This document shows, piece by piece, positions 1,149-20,000 of a DNA stretch of 20,000 bases. The position numbers were made by a program, and so were the translations under genes. The stretch lies in the IMG/VR virus record IMGVR_UViG_3300031998_000018. One strand, written 5' to 3'. Origin of the DNA: an uncultured virus (IMG/VR IMGVR_UViG_3300031998_000018) (taxonomy: Duplodnaviria; Heunggongvirae; Uroviricota; Caudoviricetes). Numbering within the stretch: position 1 is the stretch's first letter; every line of letters begins with the position of its first letter. Below the pieces are notes generated by a model. That model did not search any database. It saw only the letters and a list, made by a program, of their open reading frames with translations, and was not told where the DNA came from.

Positions 1149-1364
1149 TTATTCATCATCTGTAATAGCAAGTATTGCACATGTTATCCAACTTATTTCA
1201 AGAAATGTGACTATGCCGAGTACTATTCCATATACTATTCCCCAGCCAAGTGCAAAAGACAATGCACATAAAACAGGGTTCGCCATAAAGCATAATGCCA
1301 TAAGTAAGGCTATGATAATTCTAACTGGAAAACACACTTTACTCATTGGTGCATTTCTTCTCAA
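1149..1364 (-). CDS. Small membrane protein with two hydrophobic segments; start may be ATG 1346
   Basis: Highly hydrophobic translation; fills the gap between recJ and the methyltransferase; ends TAA. Confidence 0.6.
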   Translation of the reverse strand: MRRNAPMSKVCFPVRIIIALLMALCFMANPVLCALSFALGWGIVYGIVLGIVTFLEISWITCAILAITDDE

Positions 1365-3136
1365 AAATCTAATGGATTATATTCTGTGATGTCATAATCA
1401 TCAATGAAGATCTGCGGCGTTATATTACCCATCCAGTTATTGAGATTAGGACGCCCAACAACCTCCAAGATTACTGTTTTCTTATACTGCGCTAGCTCTT
1501 CAATGAGATCTTTTGCATGGAACTTCATATAGGCAACTCCATTACATTCGATCTTAAGCGTATCTTTATTCGTGCCCATTACACGAATATCCGAAGGCGC
1601 TACCATAATATGCTTGACATGGATCATAGGTTCAGGATTTGACTGGCCCCAAATTCCGCCCATCTCACTTAGATCAATAATTAAATCGCGTAGATCCTGC
1701 GCAGTAGATGATCTTTCGAAGTTGACATCATAACAATTCTCACCGAAATCAACATCTTTGAGTGCCTTATTCGCATATTCATGGAAGGCGCGCAAATTAC
1801 GATCGGGAATCGACACACCAAATGCATTAGCATGTCCTTGAGCATATTCAAAGTATCCACTCTCGGTCAAGAATGCTTTGAAGTCGCGTAAATCACTCTT
1901 ATTTAAGCCGCGGGCGCTACCACGATCAAATCCTTCGGCGTTAAGTCTTGCTACAATAGTGGGCTTCTTATACTTTGCAGAGAGCTGCATAGCAATTAAC
2001 CCGTTTAATTCTGAAGGGAACTTGTCATCATCTTCAAGCCGGACAAAGAGGATCTTGTTTTCAAGTAAGTCATACTTGAAGATCTTCGCTTCCAAACGGA
2101 GGACGGCATCGTCCTTCATCTTGTTCTGATGCGTCTTGGCATTCGTACACACACGTGCTGCCTCGATTCCGGCCGCGCAGAGAGTACCCTTCGCGCCGCG
2201 TTTGTTGCATGGCACCATTTGGGAGCCATCAATAAATGCCTAGAAGAGAAGATCCTTTTCCTCCATTGTGCCGACACGGATGAGCGCATTGACCATTGGG
2301 ACGACATAGAAGGCAACGGAAATAGGATTAGTCTTAGCGAGAATATCCTGCCATGAAGGAGCCATTGTGCCAGTTATGGAGTAGGCCGCCTTCTCAAGTA
2401 GACAGCGGAAGAATTCATTCTTGATGTTGCGCAGACCTTGATAGATAATATATCTATTTTCTAAATCAATAACCGAACCCATATCACCAATGATGCCCCA
2501 AGCCGCGAGGTCGAGATAATCATCTGCCCAATGCTGATTGAGCTTCTCATCGAGGAACCGGCAAAACTGATATACGACGCCAGCGCCCGTCAGTTCTTTA
2601 TTCCGATATTTAGGGGACAACTGGTTATTGACGACTACTGCATTATCACTAAGTGCGACATCTGTTAAGTGATGGTCGAGGATCAGGCATGGAATATTAA
2701 TACCATCTAGCATATCATGATAGTGAGCATCATTACTTGATGAGTCAGGTAGTATGATTAGATCATAATGCACATCTTCATTCAGTAAGCGGTCGATATG
2801 ATCCTGGAGGCCATGCTGTTTGCCCTCATGGAGCCAGTAATCAATCTGGCAATGACAGTTAACCTGCTTTGTATATTGATACATAATTGTTGCAGATGTA
2901 AATCCATCGCAGTCACTATCTACAATAATAAGGACTCTGGAATATGGAGGCTGATCATTCATCACAATCCGGAGATACATCACGGCCGCCATCCCAATAT
3001 TCTTCAAATCATGGGGAGACTGTACGAAATCAGCGCGCGGCTCCATGAATGCCTATACGTCGGCGACCCCGCGCGCCTTCAACAGATTTTCTGCGTAGTT
3101 GCTACGGAAGTTTTCATTTACTAAATTACATTTCAT
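1361..3136 (-). CDS. recJ: RecJ-like DHH/DHHA1 ssDNA exonuclease, 591 aa, 2 in-frame TAG read as Gln
   Basis: ORFs 2240..3046 and 1361..2218 are in one frame, joined by TAG 2240-2242 (KDLLF*AFIDGSQMVPC). The frame extends through TAG 3053-3055 to ATG 3136, which overlaps the upstream TGA and has SD GAGGAAGAGG. Motifs DSDCDG, LDHH, GDM, RGSARG, QGHANAFG. Confidence 0.9.
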
Positions 3137-3486
3137 ACCTCTTCCTCTTTCTTATAAAAATTGTTATAATCAAACCATTTATCGCTAATTATATTTCCTA
3201 TTTTCTTAATAGTGCTACCCCATCCGTCTACTTCTACACGAACATATTTTCCAACCATTTCATTAAAACGGTCCACTCCAACTACATCCATAATACGCAT
3301 TATTTCTTCAATGCCCTTCGGGGTGCCTTCAAAAGTTTTACTATCTAGATATCCATAACCTAAAACGTATCCTCCAAAAACACATCCCCAACCTCGACCT
3401 TCAAGTACAAGTTCGAGTGTTAAAACTCCATGATCTGCCATAGACAAATCCGCTTTGGTAATTTTTGCATTTTGAATTTCTTTCAT
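3133..3486 (-). CDS. Hypothetical phage protein, 117 aa
   Basis: ATGA overlaps at both ends (primase stop, recJ start); function not recognised. Confidence 0.8.
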   Translation of the reverse strand: MKEIQNAKITKADLSMADHGVLTLELVLEGRGWGCVFGGYVLGYGYLDSKTFEGTPKGIEEIMRIMDVVGVDRFNEMVGKYVRVEVDGWGSTIKKIGNIISDKWFDYNNFYKKEEEV

Positions 3487-4523
3487 TGTACGAACACTCT
3501 ACTTTCTATCAATTTATCGAAGATTTCTTTACCGCGATCGGAAGGCGAATCTTTCATATTTGTTAGCCCTGCTCTATCATATACAAATGAAAAAGTACAA
3601 TACTGATTATATTTCGAACAAAGTTTATACAACTTATCAAAATATTTCGTCTCTCCAGGCAATTCTTCTCTATCAAAACAGATAATTATTTCTCTTGGAG
3701 AACACATTTTTAGTAATAAATTTAATTGATACTTATTAAACTGACTGCCGCAGACAGCCACTGTATTGTTGACGCCAAAGCTCGCGCATTGTAAGACAAA
3801 CTTCTCTGCTTCTCCTACGTATACATATCCGGTTTTTTTAATTGTTTCTTTATTCTCAAATAACCCATAAAGATTCATTCCCAAGGGATGACTGTAACAT
3901 TTTCCTTCGATCCAGACAGGCGCATATTTTCCATATTGCTCAATATCGTTCTCATTAAGAGCGCGGCCACGAATTCCCACGAGTGCCCCGTCCCGCGCCC
4001 CACGGTGAGGTATAATAATTTTATTTTGGGAGATGGAGAATAAGATGTTGAATCTGTCCATAGCTGACTGAGAAATCCCGTCCGATAGCCATTCTGGCGG
4101 GTATTTCTTAATAAAGCATCCTAAAGCTCCTATGGGGTAGGAAGGAAGAACAATGTTTTTCCGATTGACATAATTATTTCTTTGACTCCTATACTGTGGG
4201 ACTACAATGCCTTCAGGTTGCTTTTCACCGACAATCACACGATAAATGTCGCTATACCAGTTATATTCAATTCCCTGAGCTTCGTAATAATGTTTGAGAA
4301 ATGTGAAGATACTCAATGCGCCACATTCAGTGTAACACATAAAGATTTTATTATTTTTATAGAAATATAATTTCTTTGATGCATCTTCTGATTTGTGGTT
4401 ATGACAATATGTAGGCATTAATAAATAACTGCCTTTATCCTCATAAGGAATATCTAATTTCTCTAAAATTGACTGGACATGTTCGATTGTTAGGTTATCA
4501 ATAATTTCCTGATAATCAATCAT
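3483..4523 (-). CDS. dnaG: DnaG-like DNA primase, 346 aa
   Basis: Zn-binding region (CHNH...CYTECG), IIIPH..G.LVGIRGR, LYGL, TOPRIM (YVGEAEK, ICFDRE); ATGA overlap with the helicase. Confidence 0.85.
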   Translation of the reverse strand: MIDYQEIIDNLTIEHVQSILEKLDIPYEDKGSYLLMPTYCHNHKSEDASKKLYFYKNNKIFMCYTECGALSIFTFLKHYYEAQGIEYNWYSDIYRVIVGEKQPEGIVVPQYRSQRNNYVNRKNIVLPSYPIGALGCFIKKYPPEWLSDGISQSAMDRFNILFSISQNKIIIPHRGARDGALVGIRGRALNENDIEQYGKYAPVWIEGKCYSHPLGMNLYGLFENKETIKKTGYVYVGEAEKFVLQCASFGVNNTVAVCGSQFNKYQLNLLLKMCSPREIIICFDREELPGETKYFDKLYKLCSKYNQYCTFSFVYDRAGLTNMKDSPSDRGKEIFDKLIESRVFVQ

Positions 4524-6082
4524 TCTTTATCCTTTCCATTAAGATAATCCAGATATAATTGTTCTTCTGCTTCTGTCTCCCAATCAATCGTGTACCCACT
4601 ATCAAACATTCCTTCAATCAGATTGAACTGCGAGTCTGTTACAAATAAATCCGTCAATCTCAAATTACCTGTATCAAAGTGACTCCACACTCTAACCTGT
4701 GTCCATCTACCCGATCTAACTTTGAAGACATCGAATACTATATTCGGCGCGATACCACCACAGGCAGGAATGATTGCATTACTTAAGAACTCTAATTCTT
4801 CTTTCGTCGGTCGGGCGCCAATAATTCCATTATCTGCTTTATTGATCGTTGAACGACCGCCCGCCAATGTTGCTTCATTTCTTATTGTTGAGTTATCATC
4901 GACTTTCGCATTGACCTGAGTTGATGTGAACACACTTATACCTTGTTCAACCGCAAGATCTTTCAATGCTGTCGCCATTAATAACAATGCTTCATCATTA
5001 CGAAGATTGCTGCCACGAAACTCCTCTAACAAATTCGGAGATACAAATACATAATCAAAGAACACATATTGCGCGCCAGTTGTGATAACCTTCTCGCGCA
5101 CTGCTAATTTGAGCTGTTCCACATCTGGATCTGGGATACGCATCAACTCAAAATTTTGCTTATAATGATGGATCATCTCTTGTGCTTGACTAACACGATA
5201 TCTTTCTTCTGTTGTGAGACGACCAAATCTCAAATTTGAGTCCTCAATTCCAGTTAGATACGCAACAACCATACGAAGAATCTGCTCTGGAGTCTGCTCT
5301 GTCATAATAAACAACACAGGTTCATTATGTCCATTCTTTACCCATTTATCTTCTTTCAGATCATATCTAAATGGATAAGCTAACTTACATGCATCTGCCA
5401 CTGCTAATCTCGTCTTACCTATACCTGATGCTAATGACCTAATTGTTAACGCACCTAACTCCGCGCCGTTAATAATTTCGGAGATAATCGTTCCATTGAT
5501 TGATTTGCCTATATTATTAACCTTACCAAAGTTATTGATGATGTCATCAATCGTGTCAGCGGCCGACCATGATTCTATATTATGATCCTGAACATAAGTT
5601 TTCTCTAAACTGAGAACCTTCTTTTTAATTACATTTAGAATATCCTCAACTTCCAGAGATTCGAACTTCGCATTAACATCAATTGCAGCAGGATTAGTAA
5701 GATTTTCAATATAAAATTCATCTGTATTTACTCCTTGCTTGCGCAGAGATGTTAAAAGATTAAACTTCTTTAATTTCTTATAATAATAAGGGAAACTTTT
5801 TTCATCACTTAGCGCGATTGCATCTTGAAGATACTCAATTCCATTTGTCTTAACAAATAGATTTTTCGCGCTTTCGTTTGTATTGAGATAATTCTCAATA
5901 TCTATCGGGTTAATTAATGTTACACCGCTACGATAAAGACTATCTATTGCGATATAAATATATTTCTCAAATCGTGTTTCAAAATCATTCGGAGATAGTT
6001 GATACTTATCTGACTGACTTAAGAACTGCGGATGCTTCATTAATGAACCAAATATCTGCAATACCGCATTCTTATCCGTCAT
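4520..6082 (-). CDS. dnaB: DnaB-like replicative helicase, about 520 aa
   Basis: Walker A SGIGKT, FIMTEQ, Walker B FFDYV, STQVN, KAD, KVRSG. ATG 6082 chosen because SD AGGAG lies 9 nt upstream (the track start 6091 abuts the SD). Confidence 0.88.
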   Translation of the reverse strand: MTDKNAVLQIFGSLMKHPQFLSQSDKYQLSPNDFETRFEKYIYIAIDSLYRSGVTLINPIDIENYLNTNESAKNLFVKTNGIEYLQDAIALSDEKSFPYYYKKLKKFNLLTSLRKQGVNTDEFYIENLTNPAAIDVNAKFESLEVEDILNVIKKKVLSLEKTYVQDHNIESWSAADTIDDIINNFGKVNNIGKSINGTIISEIINGAELGALTIRSLASGIGKTRLAVADACKLAYPFRYDLKEDKWVKNGHNEPVLFIMTEQTPEQILRMVVAYLTGIEDSNLRFGRLTTEERYRVSQAQEMIHHYKQNFELMRIPDPDVEQLKLAVREKVITTGAQYVFFDYVFVSPNLLEEFRGSNLRNDEALLLMATALKDLAVEQGISVFTSTQVNAKVDDNSTIRNEATLAGGRSTINKADNGIIGARPTKEELEFLSNAIIPACGGIAPNIVFDVFKVRSGRWTQVRVWSHFDTGNLRLTDLFVTDSQFNLIEGMFDSGYTIDWETEAEEQLYLDYLNGKDKE

Positions 6083-6632
6083 CTGTATCATCTCCTATAT
6101 CGTCTAAACTATACTTTATGCGTGATGTGTTACGACGATTAGTGTCTTTAATAGAGACAGTTGGACGATTAAGCCGCGCCGTCATTTGCTTTACGATATC
6201 CTCTAATGTTCCCTTGCGTTTCATTTCCAGATTAGACCAGTACTGCGCACTCTCATTATAAATGTTGCTAACAATACCAATTCCTCCTTTTGCAAGTTCT
6301 GCATTACCATGTTGGACTTCATAAAAATAAATTACTGCAAAATATATACCTTTGGGAGTGTACTTTTTTGTTAGATAATTTCTCCATTGACTATGAACTT
6401 TTGCCCAATCAATTCCTGGCATCTTGAGATCGCGCCATAGATAATCTTTAAGAAGATCGAACCAGTCTTGCTCTTCACGATCTACTGTGATTGCACGATC
6501 ACTCTTGCGCGCTATCCAATCTTTATAACAGCTTGGATGATAATACCAGTTTGTACTTGGCATCATCCAATCTTGAGAAGAGTCTATATCTATTGCTTGT
6601 TTGCATACTCGACAATGAACAATATGAGCCAT
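6072..6632 (-). CDS. Hypothetical Zn-binding protein, 186 aa, first gene of the helicase-primase operon
   Basis: N-terminal CRVC...HPSC; SD AAAGGAG; overlaps the helicase start. A loader/initiator role is inferred from position only. Confidence 0.75.
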   Translation of the reverse strand: MAHIVHCRVCKQAIDIDSSQDWMMPSTNWYYHPSCYKDWIARKSDRAITVDREEQDWFDLLKDYLWRDLKMPGIDWAKVHSQWRNYLTKKYTPKGIYFAVIYFYEVQHGNAELAKGGIGIVSNIYNESAQYWSNLEMKRKGTLEDIVKQMTARLNRPTVSIKDTNRRNTSRIKYSLDDIGDDTDDG

Positions 6633-6650: not shown

Positions 6651-6691
6651 TTTTCTATAAATATTATATCATAATTTTGTAGAAAAATCAA
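6651..6691 (-). promoter_or_regulatory. Conserved early promoter, copy 2
   Basis: TTGATT (6691-6686), 17 nt, TATAAT (6668-6663), then ATTTATAGAAAA. Confidence 0.8.
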
Positions 6692-6873
6692 TTTACTAAA
6701 TATGTATCTTCCATTAAGTCTTTTATACTAAGGCAATCGCGCAATTTATAAGGCAAACGAACTAATGGGATATGATTATCTAAAGCATACTAATTCTTTA
6801 TTTGATCATGCAAACCTAATTTAGATTCAGATACCACTATCTCATTATGACCGATTTCATTAATAACACTCAT
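6688..6873 (-). pseudogene. Probable internally deleted remnant of a Vsr/DUF559-like free-standing endonuclease, 61 aa with 1 TAG
   Basis: MSVINEIGHNEIVVSESKLGLHDQIKN*YALDNHIPLVRLPYKLRD...; the C-terminal part resembles the D-x-IKNQYC-xx-N-x-IPLIRIPY tail of these phage endonucleases, but no catalytic core is present. SD AGGAGA; ends TGA. Confidence 0.6.
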
Positions 6874-6953: not shown

Positions 6954-7934
6954 TCATTTAGTTAAATCTTTCATATCTGTGACCACTAGGAACAAAAGGT
7001 CAACCTGATCTTCGGTAATTTCTGAGATTTTCATCGGATGTCCGAATATCATTTCTACTCTCTTCATTATGCGCTTTGCCATCTCTTCATTGGGTTCTTC
7101 ACCCGACATGACTAGCTTGTTCCATAATTCCTGAGCCTCGACGCGGAGTGCATTATAGTCTAACTGTTCTTCTGTAGGAGCTTCCGTTTTCTCTACAATG
7201 ACTGCTCCATCGAGCTTTGCGCTTCGATCAATAGCATCGCCTATAGCATCTACAAGTTCCTGATATCCGAATTTAATCTTAGGCGCAAGATACTTATATC
7301 GGCTACCTGCGACGACTCTTGGAGTCTGTCTTGTGTAGAGGTATCTTTCGGAATTACCTTCGGCATCCCATTCGATCGCAATATAGCCGATTACGTCGAC
7401 TAATCTGTTGCAGATCTCGTAGCAACGCTTATTCAGCGCCGGACTGTAGAACTCTACATCATTATCATCTATTTTTTCTTTGCGGATCTCTTGGTGCGCA
7501 ATCAGAATTAAACCATAACCAAGCATGGTTATTTTTCTGAGACAGGCCTCGAACTCGCCTTTTACCTGTGCATAGCCACCACCCCATGGGATGTCAGCAA
7601 TTCTTTGCACACTATTCTGCGCACATACAAACTGTTCACACAGATCATAAGCGATACTTACTGTATCAATAGTGACTGTATCGAACTTTTCCTTCGCGGC
7701 CGGCTGTTCAAGCTGGCGCAGAAGTAGTTTGAAATCAGACCACTTTTGAATAGGCTGGGCATAAATACCATCAATGGCATTGTATCCCATTTCAAAAGCG
7801 CAAAGAAGGTTTTTCTTAAACTTGGCGGCGAAGGAGGTTTTACCCACCTTCGGCGCGCCATAAACTAGGACATACTTGCCTTTCAAATCACGAGAGATTG
7901 TAGTAGGCTGAAGATTGAGAATATCAATCGCCAT
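6954..7934 (-). CDS. AAA-type NTP-binding recombination protein (Sak4/AAA_24-like), 326 aa
   Basis: Walker A GAPKVGKT, Walker B VTIDT, LILIAH, DVIGY; directly downstream of an SSB-like gene. Confidence 0.8.
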   Translation of the reverse strand: MAIDILNLQPTTISRDLKGKYVLVYGAPKVGKTSFAAKFKKNLLCAFEMGYNAIDGIYAQPIQKWSDFKLLLRQLEQPAAKEKFDTVTIDTVSIAYDLCEQFVCAQNSVQRIADIPWGGGYAQVKGEFEACLRKITMLGYGLILIAHQEIRKEKIDDNDVEFYSPALNKRCYEICNRLVDVIGYIAIEWDAEGNSERYLYTRQTPRVVAGSRYKYLAPKIKFGYQELVDAIGDAIDRSAKLDGAVIVEKTEAPTEEQLDYNALRVEAQELWNKLVMSGEEPNEEMAKRIMKRVEMIFGHPMKISEITEDQVDLLFLVVTDMKDLTK

Positions 7935-7951
7935 AGTTACACCTCTTTAGA

Positions 7952-8857
7952 TTAGAAACCGAAGTTGAACTTACTTCCTGCAGCAGGTGCTGCTTTCGCT
8001 GTAGTTCCCTTCGAAGCGCCCTTCTCTTTCAGAGCGGCAAGGCGTTCCTTCCTTTCTGCAAGAGCAGCGGTTACATCGTTCGGATCAAGCGCGAACTCTC
8101 CATCGAGAGGACTTGAAGAACCTCCAGTCAGGATCAGCTCACTGACACTGATTGTGCGGACTTCCTCGGTAGGCTCACCAAAGTCGACTTCGACCTTGCG
8201 GACTTCCGATCTCGATGTGAAGTTGAGCTTACCAGTGGCCTTAACTGTGTCGCCTTCGTTCCAGTAGTTGGACACTCCGTCGATCACACCAGGATTGATG
8301 GCGAAGAACGGAACTACGTCGATCTTGCCGCCGTACTGAGGCACCATACCGATGATCTTGTACTTGTTGGTTTCGACACCGTCTTTATCGGTCTCATATC
8401 CCTTGTTGCCAACCATGAACACGATCGAGAAGGTCGCGCAAGGCTTGCATTCATCTTTCTTTACCTTAGAGATAAAGGAAGCAGTGATACGAGGGAAGGA
8501 GATCAGATTGCCGTTCTGACCATAGTACTCATTCATCTGGATCTGACCACGAGTGATACGGATGCGATCCGCATGATCGATATCAGAAGCCGCGATACTG
8601 ACATATTCCTTCATCACACGACTGATGGATTCATATGCAGGGTTTGGCGCGCCAGCATTGGTAAGCTTGCTTGCGAACATATGTACAGGGATCTCCAGGT
8701 CAGTGGAGACACCATTAATGTCCTGAGTTACACGGACTTTGATAGAGCCGCCAATGGACTCCATCGTAGTACCATTTTTATTAAAAGTTTTTGTCTGAAG
8801 ATCTATTTCGCTGAGGATACCCTCTATCTTAACGATGTTTTCTTTTGTCTGTAGCAT
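7952..8857 (-). CDS. ssb: Probable single-stranded DNA-binding protein, 301 aa
   Basis: Beta-rich OB-like pattern (N.VKIEGIL.E; GDTVKATGKL), low-complexity tail ending in aromatic FNFGF, adjacent to a Sak4-like ATPase. Confidence 0.6.
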   Translation of the reverse strand: MLQTKENIVKIEGILSEIDLQTKTFNKNGTTMESIGGSIKVRVTQDINGVSTDLEIPVHMFASKLTNAGAPNPAYESISRVMKEYVSIAASDIDHADRIRITRGQIQMNEYYGQNGNLISFPRITASFISKVKKDECKPCATFSIVFMVGNKGYETDKDGVETNKYKIIGMVPQYGGKIDVVPFFAINPGVIDGVSNYWNEGDTVKATGKLNFTSRSEVRKVEVDFGEPTEEVRTISVSELILTGGSSSPLDGEFALDPNDVTAALAERKERLAALKEKGASKGTTAKAAPAAGSKFNFGF

Positions 8858-9317: not shown

Positions 9318-11669
9318 TCAATATTTTAAAATTCGAGTCACGTTATCTATGGCGTTAAGTTTCATAGATTTATTACCTAATGCGCCTTTGCCAAAGATCG
9401 GAATATCATTAGTAGTAAGTTTGATGCAAGAACGAGTAGAAGCAATCAGAATATCAGAGTCGGTTGTGAGTGGCAGGAAGTCCGCCATCCAGTCACCTGC
9501 GTTCAGTTTCTGGAGTTTTGCGCCTTTAGTGTTCTTGCCTTGAGTTACGAACTCATTAGCGGCTGTTTTCTTGAAGAGACCAGCGCCGGATATTGAGGCG
9601 ATGAATGTAGTGTCGGTGGGGATGATATGCGCAGCGACTACGTGGTCACCTTCGTTGAGTTTGATTGCGTGAACCCCTTGCGCGACACGACCTATCGCGC
9701 GAACATCGGAGGTTGTCACCATCAGGAAGTTGCCTGCTTCAGTAAGGATACCGATACGATCATCATTAGTGAAGAGGACATCAATGATTGAGTCACCTTC
9801 TGTTAGATTAATTGCGCGCAGACCGATGCTACGGTTTGTGTTATATTCAGAGATCTCTGACTTCTTCATAATGCCGTTCTTCGTGATAAAGATAATGTAT
9901 TTCTCTGCCGGCTTCTTGGAGTTGGCAGTCATCGCGCAGACTGTCTCCCATTCTTTGAGTGGAAAGTAGTTAAAGAGTGAGGACTTTTCACCAAGCGGTA
10001 AAGAGTGGGCCGCGCAGTGGTAGACGTTTCCGGCGGAAGTGAAGAAGAGAAGCTCTTCATTGGACTCAACTGAACGGGAGTCAATTACATACTCTTTTGC
10101 ATCAAGTTTGAGTTTGTTGCCTACGCCGCCACGCTTCTGGGTGTAGAGGGTAGAGGTTTCGGTAACAATGACACTATTCTGATTGGTGAGGTTGATTTGG
10201 AGACGTTTAATCTCAATTGGTTCCTCAGACTCTGCAGTCAAATTGAGGATCTTTGTGCGGCGAGCATCACCATATTTATTTGCAACAGAGCGCCAGCCCT
10301 CTTTGAGCTCGTTATTGAACAATTCTTCACTATCAAGAATTGTATGAATTCTGACAGCTTCTTTTTCGAGGTCAGCTTTTTCATTTTCGAGTTTCTTAAC
10401 TTCGAGGTGTGCTAAACGACTTAGCTTCATATCAAGCACAGCCTTAGCCTGGTCTTCATCAAGCAGGAACTTGGATTGAAGTGCCGTACTGGCAGCAGCA
10501 GTCGACGTACTTGCTTTAATTGTCTGCACGACTTCTTCAATAGAGGCCATACAGATTAACAGACCATCTATAATGTGAATACGCTTCTCAATCTTACGGA
10601 GATCAAACTCAAAGCCTCTGTAATAAACCTTTTTTTCGTGCGCGATATGAGCTTCGAGCATTTCTTTCCAAGTGAAGACTTTCGGATAACGCCCTTGATC
10701 GAGCATTGTGAAGTTGATACCATAGTAATATTGAAGCGAAGTATTCTTATATAAGTGCTTTAATACCTTATCAGGATTCGCTTTTTTGGTGAGATAAATT
10801 TTGATTAAAGGCGATGAACCCGTGAGGTCATTGAAGCGTTCAACACCGGGGTTATCTTCGCTTTCGATAATCTCCTCAAGTTCGGCGCAGATTGTATTGG
10901 TATAGACGCTATATGGGATTTCAGTAACTACAAAACAGCGCTCTTTGCTGTCGAAATCGACAACACTCCTCAACTTGCAAGCAAAGCCCTGCCCATTCTT
11001 CATTGATTGCTTGACTTCATCTTCATTGTATAACACTGCGCCCGTCGCGAAGTCTGGCGCGCAATAGATGTCCTCAAATGAACAGTCAGGATGGTCAATA
11101 AGATAAATCAGCGCATTATTCAGTTCTTTGATGTTATATTGAGGAATGGAACACGCCATGCCGATACCGATACCAGTTGAACCATTCACGATATTGTAGA
11201 AGCCTTTTGAGGGAAGAACAGATGGATACTGTTCAGTTTCGGAGTAGTTATCGCGCCATTCCACAATGGTATCTTTATCTATATCCTCAAAGAGGTTAGC
11301 AGATATCTTAGAGAGGCGAGCCTCCGTGTAACGAGGCGCCGCCCAGTTGCCTGATGCAATGAGAGTACCGCCATTGCCCTTGATAGTAACGAGTGGATAC
11401 CGCATAGCAAATGGCTGACCCGCGCGCATTATAATTCCTTCACAAGAGGAGTCACCATGGATGTAGAAGTGCTTAAGAGCTTCACCGATAGAGGCCATGG
11501 TCTTCTGATATGGCTTGTCGGCAGTATACTTATACTTATCCATGCAGTAAAGTATCTGTCTCGCAGATGGTTTCAATCCATCACGCACATCAACGAGCGC
11601 GCGCGATTGTAAGACACTCCCTGCATATTGAGTCATTGCTTCACTGATTACATTTTTAAGGTTGCTCAT
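9318..11669 (-). CDS. gyrA: Type IIA topoisomerase subunit A (GyrA-like), 783 aa
   Basis: RALVDVRDGLKP, HGDS, catalytic APRYTEAR, DFATG, TEIPY; C-terminal beta-pinwheel repeats with GyrA-box-like QKRGGVG. Confidence 0.93.
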   Translation of the reverse strand: MSNLKNVISEAMTQYAGSVLQSRALVDVRDGLKPSARQILYCMDKYKYTADKPYQKTMASIGEALKHFYIHGDSSCEGIIMRAGQPFAMRYPLVTIKGNGGTLIASGNWAAPRYTEARLSKISANLFEDIDKDTIVEWRDNYSETEQYPSVLPSKGFYNIVNGSTGIGIGMACSIPQYNIKELNNALIYLIDHPDCSFEDIYCAPDFATGAVLYNEDEVKQSMKNGQGFACKLRSVVDFDSKERCFVVTEIPYSVYTNTICAELEEIIESEDNPGVERFNDLTGSSPLIKIYLTKKANPDKVLKHLYKNTSLQYYYGINFTMLDQGRYPKVFTWKEMLEAHIAHEKKVYYRGFEFDLRKIEKRIHIIDGLLICMASIEEVVQTIKASTSTAAASTALQSKFLLDEDQAKAVLDMKLSRLAHLEVKKLENEKADLEKEAVRIHTILDSEELFNNELKEGWRSVANKYGDARRTKILNLTAESEEPIEIKRLQINLTNQNSVIVTETSTLYTQKRGGVGNKLKLDAKEYVIDSRSVESNEELLFFTSAGNVYHCAAHSLPLGEKSSLFNYFPLKEWETVCAMTANSKKPAEKYIIFITKNGIMKKSEISEYNTNRSIGLRAINLTEGDSIIDVLFTNDDRIGILTEAGNFLMVTTSDVRAIGRVAQGVHAIKLNEGDHVVAAHIIPTDTTFIASISGAGLFKKTAANEFVTQGKNTKGAKLQKLNAGDWMADFLPLTTDSDILIASTRSCIKLTTNDIPIFGKGALGNKSMKLNAIDNVTRILKY

Positions 11670-11672
11670 TTA

Positions 11673-13526
11673 TTACTCCTTTATTTGTGAAAAGTCGACA
11701 TTCTCAAATATGAATTCTCTGCGCGGTTCGACTTCCTCGCCCATTAAGTCATAAAGTAGATCAATGGCATTTTCGTTCCACTCCATCACATCCATACGCT
11801 GATATTCAGGAGTAAACATTGACTTGCGCGCCTGATCTGGCTCAAGTGAACCAAGACCTTTGTTGCGCTGCACTTCACCCTTGATTTTGCCTTTTACTTT
11901 GTTGAACTCTTCATCAGTAAAGTAGTAGGACTCAGTCTTACTACTAGTCACGATGTAGAGAGGTGAACGAAGCCAGCAGAGCCTTCCTTCACGAATGAAG
12001 TCGGGCGCGAGATACTGCAGAGCAGCCATAATCAGTAAGCCAATATGATAACCATCTGAGTCAGCATCTGTACAGATTGCGAGACGACCATAACGAAGGT
12101 TCTTTGCATTATATTTGCCAGGAACAATATTCATCGCACTCAGTAGAAGTTTGATTTCTTCATTATTGAAGATCTTTTCTTCAGGATTAGATAAACAGTT
12201 AATGATCTTACCACGAATAGCCATGATGCCATACTTGGTATAATCACGACCTTGCGCCAGACCACCAAGCGCGCTATCACCCTCGGCAATTAGTAGGGTA
12301 GACCCTTCACCGAGAAACTCAGCATCCTTCAGTTTATCAGATGAAAAGACTTTCTTCTTCTGATTCTTCTCTACTTCGCGCGCAGCATCAAGGACTTGGC
12401 GCCGTGCCTTTTCGGCGGCTGCTTCGGCTTTAGCGATTTTCTTAAGCATCTCCACGATAGTATCAAACTCCGAGGAGTACTTAGTCTTCATTACTTTCAG
12501 AGCATCAGAAAATGCATTCGAAGCCAAAGTCCGCAGACTAGCGTTATTAATTTTGGATTTAGTTTGGTTAGCGAAAGAAGGTTGCGCCACAGAGCAGTTG
12601 ATAACATAATATAGACCAGAGCGGATGCTATCGCCGTCAAACTTTTGTCCTGAGAGGTTGTTGAAGGTTCTGGTGATGGCACTTTTAGCCCCCGTGATAG
12701 GGCTACCGCCTTCAGGTACTCGTAAGCCATTAACAAAGACATATTCATGTTCTTTATTGTCTCCCCATTGAAATGCGATATCTACTTTATCAACGCCATC
12801 TGTGGCAGTAGCGGTGATAATGTGTTGATGTAATGGCGCCTTGACGTTATCTTTGATGAAATCGATAATGCCATTCTTGGCGCAGAATGTTTTTTTGACT
12901 CCCTTGTCGTTAGCGACAAGGAAGGTTACTCCTGTGTAGAGATAGGAGATATCGTGGATCTCTTGACAGATACGATCATAAGAATAACCGATTTCACCGT
13001 TTTTGAAGACTTCGGGATCTGGGATAAACCAAATCTTCGTGCCATTCGGCTCGGTTGTATCATATTCGACATATTCATCAAGAATGCCTTGATTCCAGCA
13101 AGCATAAGCGGCCTTGCCATCACGATAGCTGTCTACGATAAATTGCTTGGAACTGAGGCAGACGCATTTACCGCCAATGCCATTGAGACCCGATGAGTTC
13201 TTATAGGCGCCTTCCTCAAACTTGCCGCCTGTGTGAGAACGAGAGTAGATGGATACTAAAACATTTTCACCATCCTCGCGGATACCAAACGGAACGCCGC
13301 GTCCGTAGTCACGGATCATTATGCTGTTGTTAGTTTCTGCGACGAGGATTTCGATTTTATTGCCATATCCAGCAATCGCCTCGTCTGTTGAGTTGTTGAT
13401 GATTTCCTTGAAGGCTTGATAGGTGCCTTCGTTGTCATCAGAACCGAGATACATTTGGATGCGGGTTCTAATACCCTCACGGAAGCTCAAGGATTTAATA
13501 TCCTCTATACCGTAATTATGAGTCAT
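11673..13526 (-). CDS. gyrB: Type IIA topoisomerase subunit B (GyrB-like), about 617 aa
   Basis: GHKL motifs (EIINNSTDE, DYGRGVP, HTGGKF, GLNGIG), TOPRIM EGDSA, RGKIIN, DADSDG, KGLG. ATG 13526 overlaps the mom TGA and has SD GGAGAG (track start 13538). Confidence 0.93.
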   Translation of the reverse strand: MTHNYGIEDIKSLSFREGIRTRIQMYLGSDDNEGTYQAFKEIINNSTDEAIAGYGNKIEILVAETNNSIMIRDYGRGVPFGIREDGENVLVSIYSRSHTGGKFEEGAYKNSSGLNGIGGKCVCLSSKQFIVDSYRDGKAAYACWNQGILDEYVEYDTTEPNGTKIWFIPDPEVFKNGEIGYSYDRICQEIHDISYLYTGVTFLVANDKGVKKTFCAKNGIIDFIKDNVKAPLHQHIITATATDGVDKVDIAFQWGDNKEHEYVFVNGLRVPEGGSPITGAKSAITRTFNNLSGQKFDGDSIRSGLYYVINCSVAQPSFANQTKSKINNASLRTLASNAFSDALKVMKTKYSSEFDTIVEMLKKIAKAEAAAEKARRQVLDAAREVEKNQKKKVFSSDKLKDAEFLGEGSTLLIAEGDSALGGLAQGRDYTKYGIMAIRGKIINCLSNPEEKIFNNEEIKLLLSAMNIVPGKYNAKNLRYGRLAICTDADSDGYHIGLLIMAALQYLAPDFIREGRLCWLRSPLYIVTSSKTESYYFTDEEFNKVKGKIKGEVQRNKGLGSLEPDQARKSMFTPEYQRMDVMEWNENAIDLLYDLMGEEVEPRREFIFENVDFSQIKE

Positions 13527-14680
13527 GTTTCTCTCCATTCTATTGTATATCCATTAATTGTATTTTGATGCCGCTGTTTTGCTATTGAGACTGCTTGGCG
13601 CGAGACATCGCAGTAATCTGCAACTTCGACTTGACGATTAAAGCGAACACCGTCGATCATGCAGATATAAGGAGTGTCAATTATTTCTTCAGGTTCCGTT
13701 TCGGAGTTGTATTGACGGAAGAAATGTTCTTTATACATCTTGCCAGATTTGATCGCGGCACGCAGTCCACTATCTGACAAGCCTGATGGACACTGCGCCA
13801 GAGCGTCTTTTATACTGGTGTAAGTAGTTATTAACTCACCATCATGAGAGTATTCTGCTACGTTGAGATGAACTGTCGGTAACTCGCCATGACGGATTAA
13901 AGCGGCGCGAGTAAATAACTTCTCTTCTTTTTCATAATAATATTGAACAAAATTGCGGGCGGGCGCAGTGTAAGTCGATAAGAACTCATTATCTTCTTTG
14001 TATACGCGCTCTTTAGTACATATCGGATATTCCGTGGCCGGCTTCGGATAGGGCAGGACAGGACTGGCGCAGTGTAGTTTTTTATCTAATCTTTGAATAT
14101 AGATGAACTGTTTAGTCCAAGTCTGCCTGACATCATGATAAAGATCACAAATACTTTGACGGAATGGTTTAGATCTATCTGTATAATGTGTATAGTAATA
14201 CCATACGGTTATTTGATGGCGCTCTTGACCATCGAGTAACCAGAAACCGTCTGAAACAAAATAGCCGAGATACTCCCAGTTAGTAGCTTGATAGATAAAA
14301 CCGTAATTACCTTCTTTGCGCCCTGCATAGGACACAAGAAGTTTAATTTCAGGTTTATTTTGCTTGATCCATTTAATACCGAGAGAGATGGCTTGACTTT
14401 CTGAGTTTTTCCCCTCGGAGTCTGCCATACAAAACCGATTGAGTTCGAGATATTGATCCTTAGTTATCGGCTCTTTGACATAACGATCTAGTCGAATAGC
14501 CTCTTGCGCGCTACATCCCCATTGGAGGACACCAACAAGAAGATTATCACTTTTGCGATAAATACCCTAATTGATCTTTGCTTTCTTGAAGCCAACTCCA
14601 GAATAGTGATATAAGGCAGTCATTTTATTTGCCTTAGATGAGTTGATTAGGTCAATATAATAATCTTTACTTTCAATCAT
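13523..14680 (-). CDS. mom: Mom-like adenine-modification (GNAT-fold) enzyme fused to NUMOD1-like and HTH domains, 385 aa, 1 in-frame TAG
   Basis: Reading through TAG 14567-14569 gives HYS...GIY...LVGVLQWG...YLELNRF...KNSESQAIS...VSYA...G.IYQATNWEYLG...PYPK, colinear with phage Mu Mom as recalled. Then VAEYSHDGELITTYTSIKDA (NUMOD1-like) and EVADYCDVSRQAVS (HTH). Confidence 0.85.
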
Positions 14681-14787: not shown

Positions 14788-14805
14788 TTTCTACTTACTA
14801 TATGA
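14788..14805 (+). promoter_or_regulatory. Candidate phage late-promoter motif
   Basis: TTTCTACTTACTATATG upstream of the plus-strand structural-like gene; same TACTTA core at 18523 (+) and 6908-6903 (-). Confidence 0.4.
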
Positions 14806-14829
14806 AAAATCTACCGGGAGGTAAAAAAT

Positions 14830-15144: not shown

Positions 15145-15158
15145 TTAAACATGAAATC

Positions 15159-15185
15159 GAGCAGGCATTACGCCTGCTCTTTTTT
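15159..15185. terminator. Intrinsic terminator between convergent genes
   Basis: GAGCAGGC-ATTAC-GCCTGCTC (15159-15179) followed by TTTTTT. Confidence 0.85.
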
Positions 15186-15186
15186 A

Positions 15187-16245
15187 TTATCTTTCCCAGT
15201 TACTTGTCATTCTTGCTCGTTTTGCTTTTGTCGGTATTGTCGCCCATACAAGTAAATCTCGCGCTCGAGTGGCTGCAACATAACTCACACATTTTTCTTC
15301 GAGGTCATAGAAGCGGGCGCCGATTACGACCACATTCTTTGCTTCTAGTCCTTTGCTGGTGTGGATAGTTAGTACTTTGACATCATCGCTCTTTAACTTC
15401 TCATATAACTCTGCATTAGTTAATTGAGCGCGTTTAAATGACGAGGCTGGAATATCTTCACTTTCGAGATATTTCATGATTTCATCTGACTAATCATTAG
15501 TTCGAGTCAGTATGAACCAATCCTTATAGTTGCCCATTCGTTTGATTGTCCTGACAATTGCCACAGGGCTATAATCCACTGTCACTACGCGTCCGGCTGT
15601 CTTGCGCATGGCGATAGAAGAATCACAATATTCATATCCAGCCTGGAGGATGATACTGCGTGCAAATGAGAGGATATCACTACCATTACGATAGTTCTCA
15701 TTCATATATTCAACAACGCCATTGGTTTGCTTAATGTAGTCATTGATGTATTCTGGATGAGCATCGCGCCAACGATATATAGACTGGCGCTTATCATAGC
15801 AACAGAATCGTTTTTGAGGCTGAAGGATATTGAAGATAAATTCGAATTGATCTGCGTTGCAGTCTTGCATCTCGTCACAAAGAACAGCATAAACTGGCGC
15901 GACACAATCAAGATGTTCTTTAAGTAGTGAGAATAGTTTGTCGAATAATTGTTCTTCAATATATTCGAGTGCTTTGGAAACTCCGTGTGATAGGAGGAGT
16001 CTGAGACAATAAGAATGAATAGTGCCAACGAATACTCGATTCTTGTCGTAGTCGCCCAAGCGCTAACTCATTTCTTCAGCGGCCGCATTAGTGAATGTGA
16101 AAGCTATGACTTGACCTTGGTTATCATTGATAAACTAACGAGTTTTTTCGATTAGTACTAATGTTTTACCGGATGCCGCGGCTGATTCAACAAATACGTT
16201 GTCAGCGCGATTGTTGATGATTTTTTGTTGTAATGTGCTTAACAT
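15187..16245 (-). CDS. uvrD: Compact UvrD/PcrA-like SF1A helicase, 352 aa, 3 in-frame TAG
   Basis: One frame from ATG 16245 through TAGs 16135-37, 16063-65 and 15490-92. Motifs: I AAASGKT, Ia FTFTNAAAEEM, GTIHS, II DEMQD, III DKRQSIYRWRDA, IV ENYR, IVa LTRTND*S, V TIHTSKGLE, VI YVAATRAR. Confidence 0.9.
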
Positions 16246-16260
16246 GTTACTCCCGCCTAT

Positions 16261-17370
<1,110 letters not shown>

Positions 17371-17372
17371 TT

Positions 17373-18407
17373 TTATCCTCCGCTTTTAATATTATATCCA
17401 TAAATAGTGGATTGATAGAAATTCACATAAAATTTTTCTCGTTCACCCAATTTTGCTTCACCATCAACTTTTTCTAATATTTCCCATGAAAAATCTGACC
17501 AATGTTGGTATAAAGCTTTATGAATATTAGAACGCTTTATTGTTCCAATATTAAGTGATGTTTTTATATGTTCAGTCCAACGATTTGAGACCAATCCTGA
17601 AGTTTTACCAATATAAATTTCTTGGGTTTTGAGATTAGTAATTTTATAAATTACATTTTTAGGGTCAGAATTCCCTAAAACGTTGTTCATCATTTTTTTG
17701 AAAGGTTTTTGAAGATATTCAGACCAAATTAATTTTGATAGTATTTCTTTATTACGCAATCTATCAACGATTGATAAAAGATAATTTATATCTTCTAAAT
17801 CCTCGTCCGGTATACAAATACGATAAAAGTCTTGCTGTTCGTCGAGAGCGCGCTGCCGTAAAATTTCTTCATTGATAGCATCGCGTTTCTTTTGATATTC
17901 TGCTAAAGTAGCACGTAATTCATCTATATCACTATTTAAATTTGCACAAGTTTGAACGAATTCTTCTTCTGCTTGTTCAAGCAAGTCATTTTCGGTAGCG
18001 TGCAGACTACGTGTATATTCAGCCATTTTAGAGCCATAATACTGTTCAAGCATGCTATCGAGAGTGCCTTTTGCCTTTTCGTTTTGCTCAACTAGCTGTT
18101 GATATTGATCTTTAAGGACTTTTGCCTCATTCTGCGCCCGTTGCTCCTGTTCAGACACCTGCCGATTCAATAAATTTATGCGTCGGGTGCTCTCTGCATC
18201 AAAATTCAAACGAGCCTACTGCGCTATCTCTAGCCTATGTCTTTCCTCTGAAAGCGCGGAGTCAAATTGCTATTTCTTTTTTTCTATATATTCTTCTTTA
18301 TATTCTATTCTTTGTTTGTATAATTTAATTAAAAATATTATAATAAATATAAATAATATAAAAGTTAATATCAATGAACTTAATATTATATATAGTATGT
18401 ACTTCAT
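17373..18407 (-). CDS. Membrane-anchored coiled-coil protein with C-terminal GIY-YIG nuclease domain, 344 aa, 2 in-frame TAG
   Basis: The frame extends through TAG 18216-18 and 18270-72 to ATG 18407 (SD GGAGG). N-terminal TM helix YILYIILSSLILTFILFIFIIIFLI, long E/Q/K/R-rich helix, then VIYKITN...IYIGKT...RWTEH...EREKFY...YGYN. Confidence 0.85.
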
Positions 18408-18427
18408 TTTATCTATTCCTCCATTAT

Positions 18428-18468
18428 ATCTATATAAATATTATACATTATTTTTATCCGAAAATCAA
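18428..18468 (-). promoter_or_regulatory. Conserved early promoter, copy 5 (TM-GIY-YIG, GIY-YIG, uvrD operon)
   Basis: TTGATT (18468-18463), 17 nt, TATAAT (18445-18440), then ATTTATATAGA. Confidence 0.8.
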
Positions 18469-18522
18469 TTTTTGAGTCGTTGCCACCGAGCGTGAAAAAT
18501 TAGAGTATTTCGCCATAAAGGA

Positions 18523-18536
18523 TACTTATAAATGTA
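18523..18536 (+). promoter_or_regulatory. Candidate phage late-promoter motif
   Basis: TACTTATAAATG just ahead of the plus-strand structural operon. Confidence 0.4.
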
Positions 18537-18569
18537 AGCAGATTGGCTAATAAATTAAGGAGGAAAGTC

Positions 18570-18896
18570 ATGATCAGAGGCACAACACCTACTCATGTGT
18601 TCACTAAATTACCAGTGTTATCCACTGATATTGCTGAATTATGGGTTACCTACCTTCAAAACGGACGAGAAGTTCTGACTAAGGATAAGACATCGGCGGT
18701 CTTCATCGATGATCCTGAGGAAGAAACAAGTATTCTTGAAGTCACTTTAAGCCAAGAAGAGACTCTCAAATTTAATTATGGCCCAGCAAGCGTGCAGTTA
18801 CGTCTATTACTTGTTGATGATACAGCACTGGCTTCGGACGAAGTGCCACTTGTCGTTAAACGAATTCTGAAAAATGGGATTATTGGAGCGGAATGA
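18570..18896 (+). CDS. Phage structural protein, BppU-N-like beta domain, 108 aa
   Basis: MIRGTTPTHVF...LWVTYLQ...VTLSQEETLKF...VQLRLL; SD AAGGAGG before ATG 18570. Confidence 0.75.
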   Translation: MIRGTTPTHVFTKLPVLSTDIAELWVTYLQNGREVLTKDKTSAVFIDDPEEETSILEVTLSQEETLKFNYGPASVQLRLLLVDDTALASDEVPLVVKRILKNGIIGAE

Positions 18897-19743
18897 TTTA
18901 ACGCAATCAGAGCGTATATAGATAATTGATGCAGTGCGCGGAAAATTACCAATAGATTATTCTACTGAAATGACTGTCATCCCTGTCGAGTTCGAGGAAC
19001 AATCAAGTAGAATTCCGGTGATTATTCCTGAGCGAGAAGATGTTCCTTCTTTCTTTGAGGACTACATTGCTTAGCGCGGGAGCTGCCGCATTATATATAA
19101 GACCACTTCAGAATGGGATGCAGAACCTACTTTAGTTGGGTACCGCGGCTATCTGTATGTTTATCTTGATGCAGATTCTTATGTAGATGAGCACGGTAAT
19201 ACAGTATATGTCCCCGCAATCAAGTTAGGCGATGGAGAAACACCATTAATTGATTTGCCGTTTATGACGGCTTAGACCTCGCAAGAGGTAATTCACCATC
19301 TTGAGGATGCTTATGCACACTGGCAAGAGGGTGAGCGCGAGGCTCTTCAAGCGACACTTGAAGGAAAAGTAGATATAACAGAATTTAGTGAATATATTGA
19401 AATTGATGAAGCTCAAGGATATTTTGATGCTGAGACAATAGCAATTATTCAAACAAATCCAATTAAGCGAATAAAGTATGATGATCGTATTTATACTATG
19501 ACAATGCGTCGGTCTGGTGTGTATCGGTACACAACGGGTAGTGATGATGCTAATTTTGCTAAGTTCATTGATGTGAATGTTAGCGATTTTAGTTGGCATT
19601 GTTATAATAATGAAAATGATGTGCTTGCATAGCATATTAATGACACCACGGTGCATATCACTGATGCTAAAAGGACATTTTGGAATAGAAAACTTAATTA
19701 TGACACCGTCTCGGAAGAGCGGTTAATATTAAATAGAAATTAA
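18874..19743 (+). CDS. Tail-fibre-associated protein, about 289 aa, 4 in-frame TAG; start uncertain
   Basis: Open through TAGs 18919, 19072, 19273 and 19630 to TAA 19741-43. Contains TTSEWDAEPTLV...IKLGDGETPLIDLPF (Mtd_N/hyaluronidase-N-like) and HINDTTVHITDAKRTFWN. Confidence 0.75.
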
Positions 19744-19757
19744 AAGGAGGAAAGTTT

Positions 19758-20000
19758 ATGCCTACCCCACAATATTCTAATTATATTGCGTAGATCACTC
19801 TTCCCGATAATATTACTTATCACATAAAGGACTCTGAAGCTAGACAATGGATAGAGGATCTTGCATCTGCTGGCTGGTAATCGCATTTATTTTCGCTCAT
19901 CTAATACTACTACCTTAAACTCTGGTTCTTTTGTAGTTAAGAAAACTAATAGTCTTGATGGGGTCAATGCGGCCTATGAAGTTGGTGGTTTATTAGCTTC
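19758..20000 (+). CDS. 5' part of a tail-fibre-like gene with 1 TAG and an apparent frameshift near 19869-19877
   Basis: SD AAGGAGG; MPTPQYSNYIA*ITLPDNITYHIKDSEARQWIEDLASAGW stops at TAA 19878-80, but the +1 frame continues AGNRIYFRSSNTTTLNSGSFVVKK... to the window end. Confidence 0.55.

Follow-up and report, generated by a model that had tools for sequence, protein, structure and literature searches.

Recoding of TAG to glutamine in gut phages, which the initial annotation of the DNA studied here took as known, has indeed been published and proven elsewhere, with metaproteomics providing the proof for two crAss-like phages; in table-15 crAss-like and Lak phages, TAG codes for Gln and is found chiefly in late genes (PMC7886860, PMC9523058). 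According to the preprint by Borges et al. (bioRxiv 10.1101/2021.08.26.457843), the Agate clade comprises large gut phages of about 127-154 kb with members in cattle, uses tables 11, 15 and 4 within one clade, keeps its replication machinery largely without the recoded codon and has structural genes in several modules and recoded endonuclease genes. Phage phAss-1, of the proposed Phassvirus, is a 136-kb table-15 gut siphovirus with CUA tRNAs, no synthetase and a predicted host among the Clostridia (PMC10607447). The phage described below shares several of these traits.

The window, the whole stretch of 20,000 nucleotides that was analysed, is the replication region of a phage and is contained in a 66-kb virus record (G001; 54% complete) from the cattle gut; assemblies with these proteins measure 133-143 kb. 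In the phage carrying it, UAG is glutamine (table 15): TAG is a sense codon throughout the record and specifies Gln. With great confidence, we place this in a joint explanation, that of a siphovirus-type phage of the cattle gut of ~135-145 kb with UAG as Gln, a CUA tRNA, partial read-through and selection by gene class. A count of 22 in-frame TAGs in eight frames had been given initially, and our recount agrees with it. The names "tail genes" and "endonuclease remnant" introduced with that count have only weak PHROG matches behind them (E 9e-4 each). The features of the window are as follows.

1361..3136, minus strand: RecJ-like exonuclease, 591 aa, with DHH and RecJ_OB domains (Pfam); 2 TAGs, at codons 28 (3053-3055) and 299 (2240-2242).
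3483..6632, minus strand: primase, DnaB helicase and a 186-aa gene; 0 TAGs among 41 Gln codons.
6688..6873, minus strand: possible endonuclease remnant, 61 codons, matching PHROG 559 only; 1 TAG (6790), left out of the evidence.
6954..8857, minus strand: AAA_24 ATPase and a 301-aa gene (putative SSB, by inference only); 0 TAGs among 22 Gln codons.
9318..13538, minus strand: gyrA and gyrB; 0 TAGs among 38 Gln codons.
13523..14680, minus strand: Mom-like DNA modification protein, 385 aa (Pfam Mom, 2-202 of 202); 1 TAG, at codon 38 (14567-14569).
15187..16245, minus strand: UvrD-like helicase, 352 aa; 3 TAGs, at codons 37 (16135), 61 (16063) and 252 (15490-15492).
16261..17370, minus strand: GIY-YIG/NUMOD1 homing-type endonuclease, its domains appearing on read-through; 8 TAGs (17305, 17092, 16897, 16879, 16756, 16741, 16540 and 16537).
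17373..18407, minus strand: membrane-anchored coiled-coil GIY-YIG protein (TM-GIY-YIG), 344 aa; 2 TAGs, at codons 46 (18270) and 64 (18216).
18418..18468, minus strand: putative sigma-70-type promoter-like site from a consensus scan, ahead of TM-GIY-YIG, GIY-YIG and uvrD (13 TAGs).
Starts at 14783, 9299, 6691 and 94: further putative sigma-70-type promoter-like sites from the consensus scan.
18874..19743, plus strand: predicted protein, possibly tail-associated; 4 TAGs (18919, 19072, 19273 and 19630). The start is unsure, and an ATG at 18970 would leave 3 TAGs here and 21 in the window.
19758..19875, plus strand: 5' end of a gene of 429 aa in the 66-kb record, from which the window departs at 19875, with a TAA just beyond at 19878 (frame to 19880); 1 TAG (19791).

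A shuffle test of the promoter-like sites (0 in 200) was discarded as support, since the pattern had been drawn from the sites themselves and the test was thus unfair.

Opening TAG raised the open reading frame coverage of the window from 0.828 (table 11) to 0.916, compared with 0.848 for TGA and 0.821 for TAA. In the 66-kb record, where a greedy open reading frame script rather than Prodigal was used, coverage was 0.70 under table 11, 0.92 under table 15 and 0.71 under table 4, a gain above the >10% by which Borges et al. recognize recoding in contigs under 100 kb. The gain in coding density that had been proposed as a check is hence present in both. Read-through yields full-length genes without fusions in the window and the record, and TAG is never the terminator: TAA or TGA closes each of the 21 window frames regarded as genes, and a TAG lies within 15 codons of the gene end in the terminase only, whose homologs extend beyond it. 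The 47 genes of the record contain 170 TAG, 381 CAA and 240 CAG codons for Gln and no in-frame TAA or TGA alongside the TAGs; terminase, portal and tape measure all carry TAG, the last of these 72 times.

Gene structure gave the same picture, and what the initial annotation had said would be restored by read-through proved to be so. The ATGA overlap at 3136-3133 and the SD-like leaders of recJ, uvrD, both GIY-YIG genes and the 19758 gene are seen only on read-through, and the DHH and RecJ_OB, Mom, UvrD N and C, and GIY-YIG and NUMOD1 domains become whole. The mom gene is without an SD of its own, and its start overlaps a 16-codon open reading frame. RecJ relatives are 50-63% identical, and a uvrD scan of viral contigs returned 0 relatives. 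The GIY-YIG gene most likely ends, to judge from its sequence relatives, at a TAA after 341 aa, as in the 66-kb record and in the related locus L342 (97% identity over 162 aa; 4 of 4 covered TAGs kept; TAA at 342), and the YIYI tail and TGA of the window version stem from its (AT)n run, which is longer there (16291-16348). The expectation that standard annotation would mis-call such DNA holds for JGI/IMG, which carries table-11 fragments, but not for Logan/ENA, where the exact table-15 proteins are already found; under table 11, the eight window frames and the majority of the record's virion genes are split or truncated, and the fragments stand in one public source.

The distribution of TAG among gene classes was uneven. 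Pooled over five code-15 genomes (G001, G002, G003, G007 and G008), which are related, so that codons are not independent and P values overstate the significance, TAG accounted for 7 of 687 Gln codons in the replisome, none of 66 in the gene for the major capsid protein and none of 21 in a cement-like gene, compared with 395 of 1,235 in minor virion and packaging genes and 50 of 334 in repair and nucleotide genes. Among low-GC3 genes of the 66-kb record, the core had 0 of 115 and the others 165 of 564; the correlation of TAG share with GC3 over 29 non-core genes was weak (rho -0.34, P 0.07). The avoidance of TAG in core DNA-copying and major capsid genes hints, through codon use only, at partial read-through. 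Neither a phage release factor nor a GlnRS, for which a search had been suggested, was found (RF-1 domain, 0 of 9 records; GlxRS domain, 0 of 5), and therefore host RF1 would still compete at UAG and read-through would be partial, starting, as codon use suggests, only after build-up of the tRNA. With read-through thus limited and delayed, selection would keep TAG out of the genes required earliest (Pol III, DnaB, primase and gyrase) and those of highest copy (major capsid and cement-like protein), while AT-biased change from CAG to TAG would fill minor virion, packaging, repair and homing-endonuclease genes.

The strongest rival concerns the purpose of recoding rather than the code and is compatible with the Gln call: following the Borges model, TAG would be purely a late-gene switch, with full read-through after a timed change and a TAG-free capsid as a by-product of codon bias. 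We give this a real chance, if somewhat short of even. Each of the five code-15 genomes shuns TAG in its core replication genes, the same genes of a complete 126-kb table-4 relative (G005) use TGA for 0 of 52 Trp codons, the capsid gene of the 66-kb record is strongly CAG biased (17 CAG versus 1 CAA) and Borges et al. describe such a pattern (bioRxiv 10.1101/2021.08.26.457843). However, the major capsid gene is a late gene and has no TAG even in its CAA-rich, low-GC3 version in G003, and 16 TAGs lie behind sigma-70-type promoter-like sites (TM-GIY-YIG, GIY-YIG, uvrD, mom and recJ), which also speaks against a late switch if these are early promoters.

More tentatively, and with doubt prevailing, TAG may act as a dose dial rather than an on/off late switch, with partial read-through setting stoichiometry, tRNAs made for direct charging by GlnRS and a clade with six or more changes of code, possibly including a return to table 11. 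The TAG load would then be none in capsid and cement-like proteins, almost none in the replisome and about one in three Gln codons of the virion proteins made in few copies. If this is true, some decoder tRNAs would be so divergent that both ARAGORN and Rfam miss them, and the published "missing suppressor" gap would in part be accounted for; a GlnRS-bearing host is predicted. The TAG-free capsid and replisome offer a direct test of a timing switch against partial read-through. A search of titles and abstract openings, with subscription papers outside its scope, returned no paper on TAG avoidance in capsid genes.

The identity of the residue was assessed in 33 alignable TAG columns, out of the 170 TAGs of the 66-kb record, against 63 loci free of in-frame TAG. 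The best residue was Gln, with Glu second at -29.9 log units. The Gln share per column was 0.43 for TAG, 0.52 for CAA and 0.57 for CAG, and the Glu share was 0.13 in TAG columns compared with 0.61 at true Glu codons. As a side observation, true Gln columns are often Glu or Lys in homologs too. Since Logan/ENA proteins can be table-15 translations, protein-database columns were dropped as proof of Gln, and we relied on JGI-only rows and on DNA codons.

By sequence comparison, the residue evidence of the window alone is mixed, with one column decisive, two supportive and three leaning to Glu; it is the 66-kb record that carries the Gln call. The decisive column is the TAG at 15490-15492, which had been singled out as pointing to Gln: at uvrD codon 252, 118 of 119 homologs have Gln (the other one has Glu), as do 12 of 13 JGI-only homologs, and the codon is CAA or CAG in 5 of 5 DNA relatives and aligns with a Gln of GajB. 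Codon 37 is CAA in an 86% identical relative (L342). At mom codon 38, 119 homologs have Leu (68), Gln (50) or Glu (1), and all 10 closest homologs have Gln, possibly as table-15 calls. The TM-GIY-YIG columns are variable, with a relative (L343) having TAG at 46 and CAA at 64. Three columns lean to Glu, namely uvrD codon 61 (71 of 119 homologs) and recJ codons 28 (Glu in 16 of 34 relatives, Gln in 3) and 299 (Glu in 21, Gln in 7). These three are what suggests that TAG specifies Glu, alone or mixed with Gln, for example through a CUA tRNA and a non-discriminating GluRS without GatCAB conversion, together with the absence from the relatives' CUA tRNAs of the U1-A72 pair that amidotransferases need (PMC9976931). 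We consider this very unlikely in view of the 33-column result, the Glu share, uvrD codon 252 and the frequent Glu or Lys in columns of true Gln codons. The claim that TAG is Gln is therefore borne out by the coding gain, the column test, the codon matches in DNA relatives and the CUA tRNAs of relatives.

As to these tRNAs, for which a search of the rest of the genome had been proposed, no tRNA gene was found in the 66-kb record, but CUA tRNAs occur in five code-15 relatives (G002, G003, G007, G008 and G012), all with U1.pyrimidine72 and G73, a Gln-type acceptor end. We infer that the remaining half of the phage genome encodes such a tRNA, which host GlnRS would charge via G73, a weak 1-72 pair and U35, in keeping with the Gln identity elements listed in PMC9976931. 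No CUA tRNA was found in the table-11 relatives G006 (29 tRNAs) and G010 (16 tRNAs) or in the fragments G004, G009 (56 of 122 kb) and G011 (17.5 of 110 kb), and no UCA tRNA in the table-4 relative. A default ARAGORN run missed two of the five relatives' CUA tRNAs, and a tRNA missed by two standard finders illustrates how suppressors go uncounted. Origin from tRNA-Trp, as in Su7, was considered and is not supported: in a set of short CUA tRNAs of the terminase family, mostly chosen by the anticodon arm itself, masking of the anticodon only put 7 of 9 nearest Trp, but removal of the arm left 1 of 9, and Trp also attracted true Gln tRNAs, in 8-9 of 25 cases. Our literature search found no paper deriving phage amber tRNAs from tRNA-Trp.

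The lack of a suppressor in the 66-kb record would also suit a host that itself reads TAG as Gln, with the phage adapted to it, a highly improbable situation. TAG is confined to part of the genes and avoided by the replisome, whereas, when phage and host both use code 25, the recoded codon is present in ~90% of the phage's genes, as stated by Borges et al. (bioRxiv 10.1101/2021.08.26.457843). Furthermore, close relatives read their genes with table 11 or 4, and the code-15 relatives encode a CUA tRNA of their own.

Homing endonucleases often decay. This proneness and two local assembly oddities (the AT run at 16291-16348 and the differing last 125 bases) are all that favours TAGs as nonsense mutations in decaying genes or as sequencing or assembly errors, an idea that the occurrence of TAG, but not TAA or TGA, within essential genes (terminase, portal and tape measure) has refuted and that is further contradicted by the TAGs shared with L342, by 17 further recoded terminase rows and by Logan contigs of run X1 (depth 15-22; possibly the same sample), which agree letter for letter, with 0 differing letters over all TAG sites.

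The host probably belongs to the Bacillota. The nearest cultured terminases are from phages of Geobacillus, Alicyclobacillus, Enterococcus and Bacillus (34-42% identity); a permease-based host search gave 1 bacterium among 86 stretches. Codes 11, 15 and 4 are mixed among relatives, and a 96-row terminase tree with outgroups, built with FastTree only, has them interspersed, forcing at least six code changes without giving a direction (5 rows of undefined code and 4 outgroups were left out of this count). A first 35-row tree, made quickly and rooted at the midpoint, nested table-11 rows inside table-15 rows, but the larger tree leaves a reversion from table 15 to 11 unsupported.

Compared with the systems described above, the best match of the G002 CUA tRNA is the short CUA tRNA of phAss-1 (76%). 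However, the terminase, GyrB and capsid are only 33.7%, 33.5% and 36.2% identical to those of phAss-1, which lies far outside the clade on the tree, so that membership in Phassvirus was rejected in favour of a different genus. CrAss-like and Lak phages infect Bacteroidota, while the terminase here is of the Bacillus/Geobacillus type and the capsid of the YonB family; moreover, the crAss-like major capsid gene is among those used for spotting in-frame stops, whereas the capsid gene here has no TAG (PMC7886860, PMC9523058). Two Agate phages encode RF2, in contrast to none in 9 records here, and "major capsid" has 0 occurrences in the available preprint text, where TAG avoidance in that gene is unreported (bioRxiv 10.1101/2021.08.26.457843). 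The likeness to the Agate clade is one of descriptive traits (~125-155 kb, animal gut and mixed codes 11/15/4), all found here but insufficient for membership. Taken together, this phage adds one further case to the published recoding of TAG to Gln.

In the window, TAG is a sense codon read as glutamine, and the coding gain, the residue columns and the DNA codons of relatives all bear out the initial annotation's proposal that the phage is recoded. The 22 in-frame TAGs reported there in eight frames were recounted and are present, and each of the 21 frames taken to be a gene has TAA or TGA as its stop. Reading TAG as sense regains whole Pfam domains, an ATGA overlap at 3136-3133, and SD-like leaders ahead of recJ, uvrD, both GIY-YIG genes and the gene at 19758. 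ORF coverage of the window is then 0.916 instead of 0.828, with values of 0.848 when TGA is opened and 0.821 when TAA is opened. Whether translation of the 18874 gene begins there is uncertain; if it begins at the ATG at position 18970, three TAGs are left. Features discussed here are the following.

424-1131, DNA methyltransferase-like gene (PHROG 757); with the Mom-like gene, one of two predicted DNA modification routes
1361..3136 (-), recJ
13523-14680 (-), mom (Mom-like gene)
14673-14723 (-), hydrophobic ORF of 16 codons, preceded by a strong SD-like leader, its stop overlapping the mom start; possibly a coupling leader for mom-gyrB-gyrA
15187..16245 (-), uvrD
16261..17370 (-), GIY-YIG gene
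17373-18407 (-), TM-GIY-YIG gene: membrane anchor, coiled coil and C-terminal GIY-YIG nuclease; family of 961 homologs, often adjoining uvrD

The nearest virus record, G001 (66,124 bp, 54% complete), contains the window. By a greedy script rather than Prodigal, ORFs of at least 80 aa cover 0.70 of it under table 11 (standard), 0.92 under table 15 (TAG as Gln) and 0.71 under table 4 (TGA as sense), and 47 of its genes hold 170 TAG, 381 CAA and 240 CAG codons and no internal TAA or TGA. Well-aligned columns were available for 33 of the 170 TAGs, with 63 loci lacking in-frame TAG as references; some of these loci, such as L006 and L036, come from the replication regions of phages that are themselves recoded. 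The Gln fraction was 0.43 in these columns (Glu, 0.13) and 0.52 to 0.57 in CAA/CAG columns; Gln was the best residue for TAG, with Glu the runner-up at -29.9 log units.

The expectation that standard annotation would miscall such genes holds for JGI/IMG, which carries table 11 fragments, but not for Logan/ENA, which already carry exact table 15 proteins; database Gln can therefore be circular, and DNA codons and JGI-only proteins were checked for this reason. The UvrD TAG at 15490 (codon 252), initially read as Gln from a PcrA/UvrD motif that the alignments made here do not display, corresponds to Gln in 118 of 119 homologs and is aligned with Gln of GajB; it is also Gln in 12 of 13 JGI-only proteins and CAA or CAG in all five DNA relatives. 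UvrD codon 37 is CAA in L342, a locus from a different strain (UvrD 86% identical). The column of Mom codon 38 (n = 119) holds Leu 68 times, Gln 50 times and Glu once. Counter to Gln, 16 of 34 relatives have Glu at recJ codon 28 (Gln in 3), 21 of the 34 have Glu at recJ codon 299 (Gln in 7), and 71 of 119 homologs have Glu at UvrD codon 61. The TM-GIY-YIG columns vary, and most remaining window TAGs lack usable homologs.

The TAGs are real and are not sequencing errors. Logan contigs of sequencing run X1 showed no other letter across window positions 1-3752, 3723-16283 and 16359-19875 at a depth of 15 to 22, and G001 matches positions 1-19875 with no mismatches and two gaps, although both may stem from the same sample. 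The different strain represented by L342 keeps all four covered GIY-YIG TAGs. Positions 16291-16348 are a run of (AT)n, 58 bases long; G001 has a shorter one, immediately preceded by a TAA that closes the GIY-YIG gene. Since the longer run in the window hides this TAA, which is also in L342, the gene probably ends at 341 aa, and the run is likely an assembly artifact of the window. The final 125 bases (19876-20000) diverge from G001, in which the 19758 gene has 429 aa. The X1 contig stops at 19875, and the segment beyond reads as an open frame for a different protein, to which none of the loci compared has a match; it is either a misjoin or an alternative tail gene segment in the population.

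TAG is unevenly distributed among gene classes. It accounts for none of 179 Gln codons in 11 core replication and nucleotide genes of G001; among genes with a GC3 of <0.42, the counts were 0/115 for the core versus 165/564 for others, so base composition does not explain the TAG-free core. The same pattern was examined in five table 15 genomes.

TAG/Gln codons by gene class (G001 whole genes plus aligned parts of G002, G003, G007 and G008)
Replisome: 7/687
Major capsid: 0/66
Cement-like protein (assignment a lead only): 0/21
Putative tube: 2/14
Minor virion and packaging: 395/1235
recJ/uvrD/ruvC/nrdD/dUTPase: 50/334

In G005, a complete 126-kb relative using table 4, TGA makes up 0 of 52 Trp codons across the same replisome genes. 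AT-rich sigma-70-type promoter-like sites at 94, 6691, 9299, 14783 and 18468 (-) each head a replication unit, with a motif common to many other contigs of cattle gut runs; 16 window TAGs fall in units behind those at 18468, 14783 and 6691. Avoidance of the recoded codon in the replisome is already described in the available text of the Borges preprint (10.1101/2021.08.26.457843). That text has no occurrence of "major capsid," and its supplements could affect conclusions about the clade and about single genes; a literature search, mostly at the level of titles and abstract openings, showed no report of TAG avoidance in capsid genes.

No tRNA of any kind was found in the 66,124 bp of the 54% complete G001. 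Among table 15 relatives, ARAGORN detected CUA tRNAs in G002, G008 and G012; that of G003 scored 38.1 bits with Rfam and was missed by default ARAGORN. That of G007 (107086-107161; L122), adjoining a tRNA-Leu, emerged only from a motif scan; it forms a clean cloverleaf (-30.3 kcal/mol) with an atypical T loop and went undetected both by Rfam RF00005 at the gathering score and by ARAGORN, even when its threshold was lowered. No CUA tRNA was seen in the fragments G004, G009 (56 of 122 kb examined) and G011 (17.5 of 110 kb examined) or in the table 11 relatives G006 and G010, and G013 and G014 gave no tRNA at an E value of 1e-9. All five CUA tRNAs have U1 opposite C or U at 72, plus G73. According to the text available for PMC9976931, GlnRS determinants are G73, the 1-72 pair and U35, Escherichia coli amber suppressors with a weakened 1-72 pair inserted Gln, and amidotransferases depend on U1-A72. 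We infer that host GlnRS may charge the CUA tRNA directly. An RF-1 domain was found in none of nine records and a GlxRS domain in none of five. A Trp origin of the CUA tRNAs was tested and is unsupported. More distant TAG-recoded phages, but not the five closest relatives, have long CUA tRNAs with a second Gln anticodon-like loop in the variable arm (L228, L241, L249, L251, L265, L269, L276 and, in phAss-1, L332:6079-6166).

In the mechanism proposed here, a phage-encoded CUA tRNA that receives Gln from the host GlnRS would compete against host RF1, genes required first or in most copies would shun TAG, and the remaining genes would gather it through CAG-to-TAG change. Recoding may serve either timing or dose.

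The phage DNA was found in bovine gut metagenomes, and contigs of 143,451 and 133,432 bp encode the same proteins. G001 further encodes Pol III alpha, NrdD, dUTPase, RuvC, Dit, a tape measure protein (2697 aa), portal, terminase, a sigma factor and a YonB family major capsid protein (ESM Atlas, 0.99; weak match to annotated capsid). Beside nrdD and the dUTPase gene lies a membrane permease-like gene (30563-31975; 470 codons; 64% identical to a bacterial protein), which, from its sequence by eye, we take to encode a xanthine/uracil permease. The host would be a member of the Bacillota, because the closest cultured terminases (34 to 42% identical) come from phages that infect Geobacillus, Alicyclobacillus, Enterococcus and Bacillus. 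On a FastTree terminase tree of 96 rows (18 table 15, 67 table 11, 2 table 4, 5 of unknown code and 4 outgroup), codes are interspersed, and table 15 forces at least six changes. G005 (L036 and L142-L148) has 35 in-frame TGAs in aligned genes, read as sense, and no UCA tRNA was found in its complete 126 kb. A related terminase is present on 16 of the 47 contigs (G018-G056 set) picked by a CUA anticodon arm and contains in-frame TAGs in 15 of the 16; TAG-recoded phages of this terminase family form a wider group.

Membership in Phassvirus is ruled out by an identity of only 33 to 36% to phAss-1, as far as PMC10607447 describes it. The mixed codes of the relatives fit the Agate clade as described in the Borges preprint, a likeness by description only. 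As initially noted, TAG-to-Gln phages are already known from the portions available of that preprint, PMC7886860, PMC11210395 and PMC10607447, and peptides prove TAG recoding in crAss-like phages according to the accessible part of PMC9523058; the phage described here adds another member to these published TAG-to-Gln phages.
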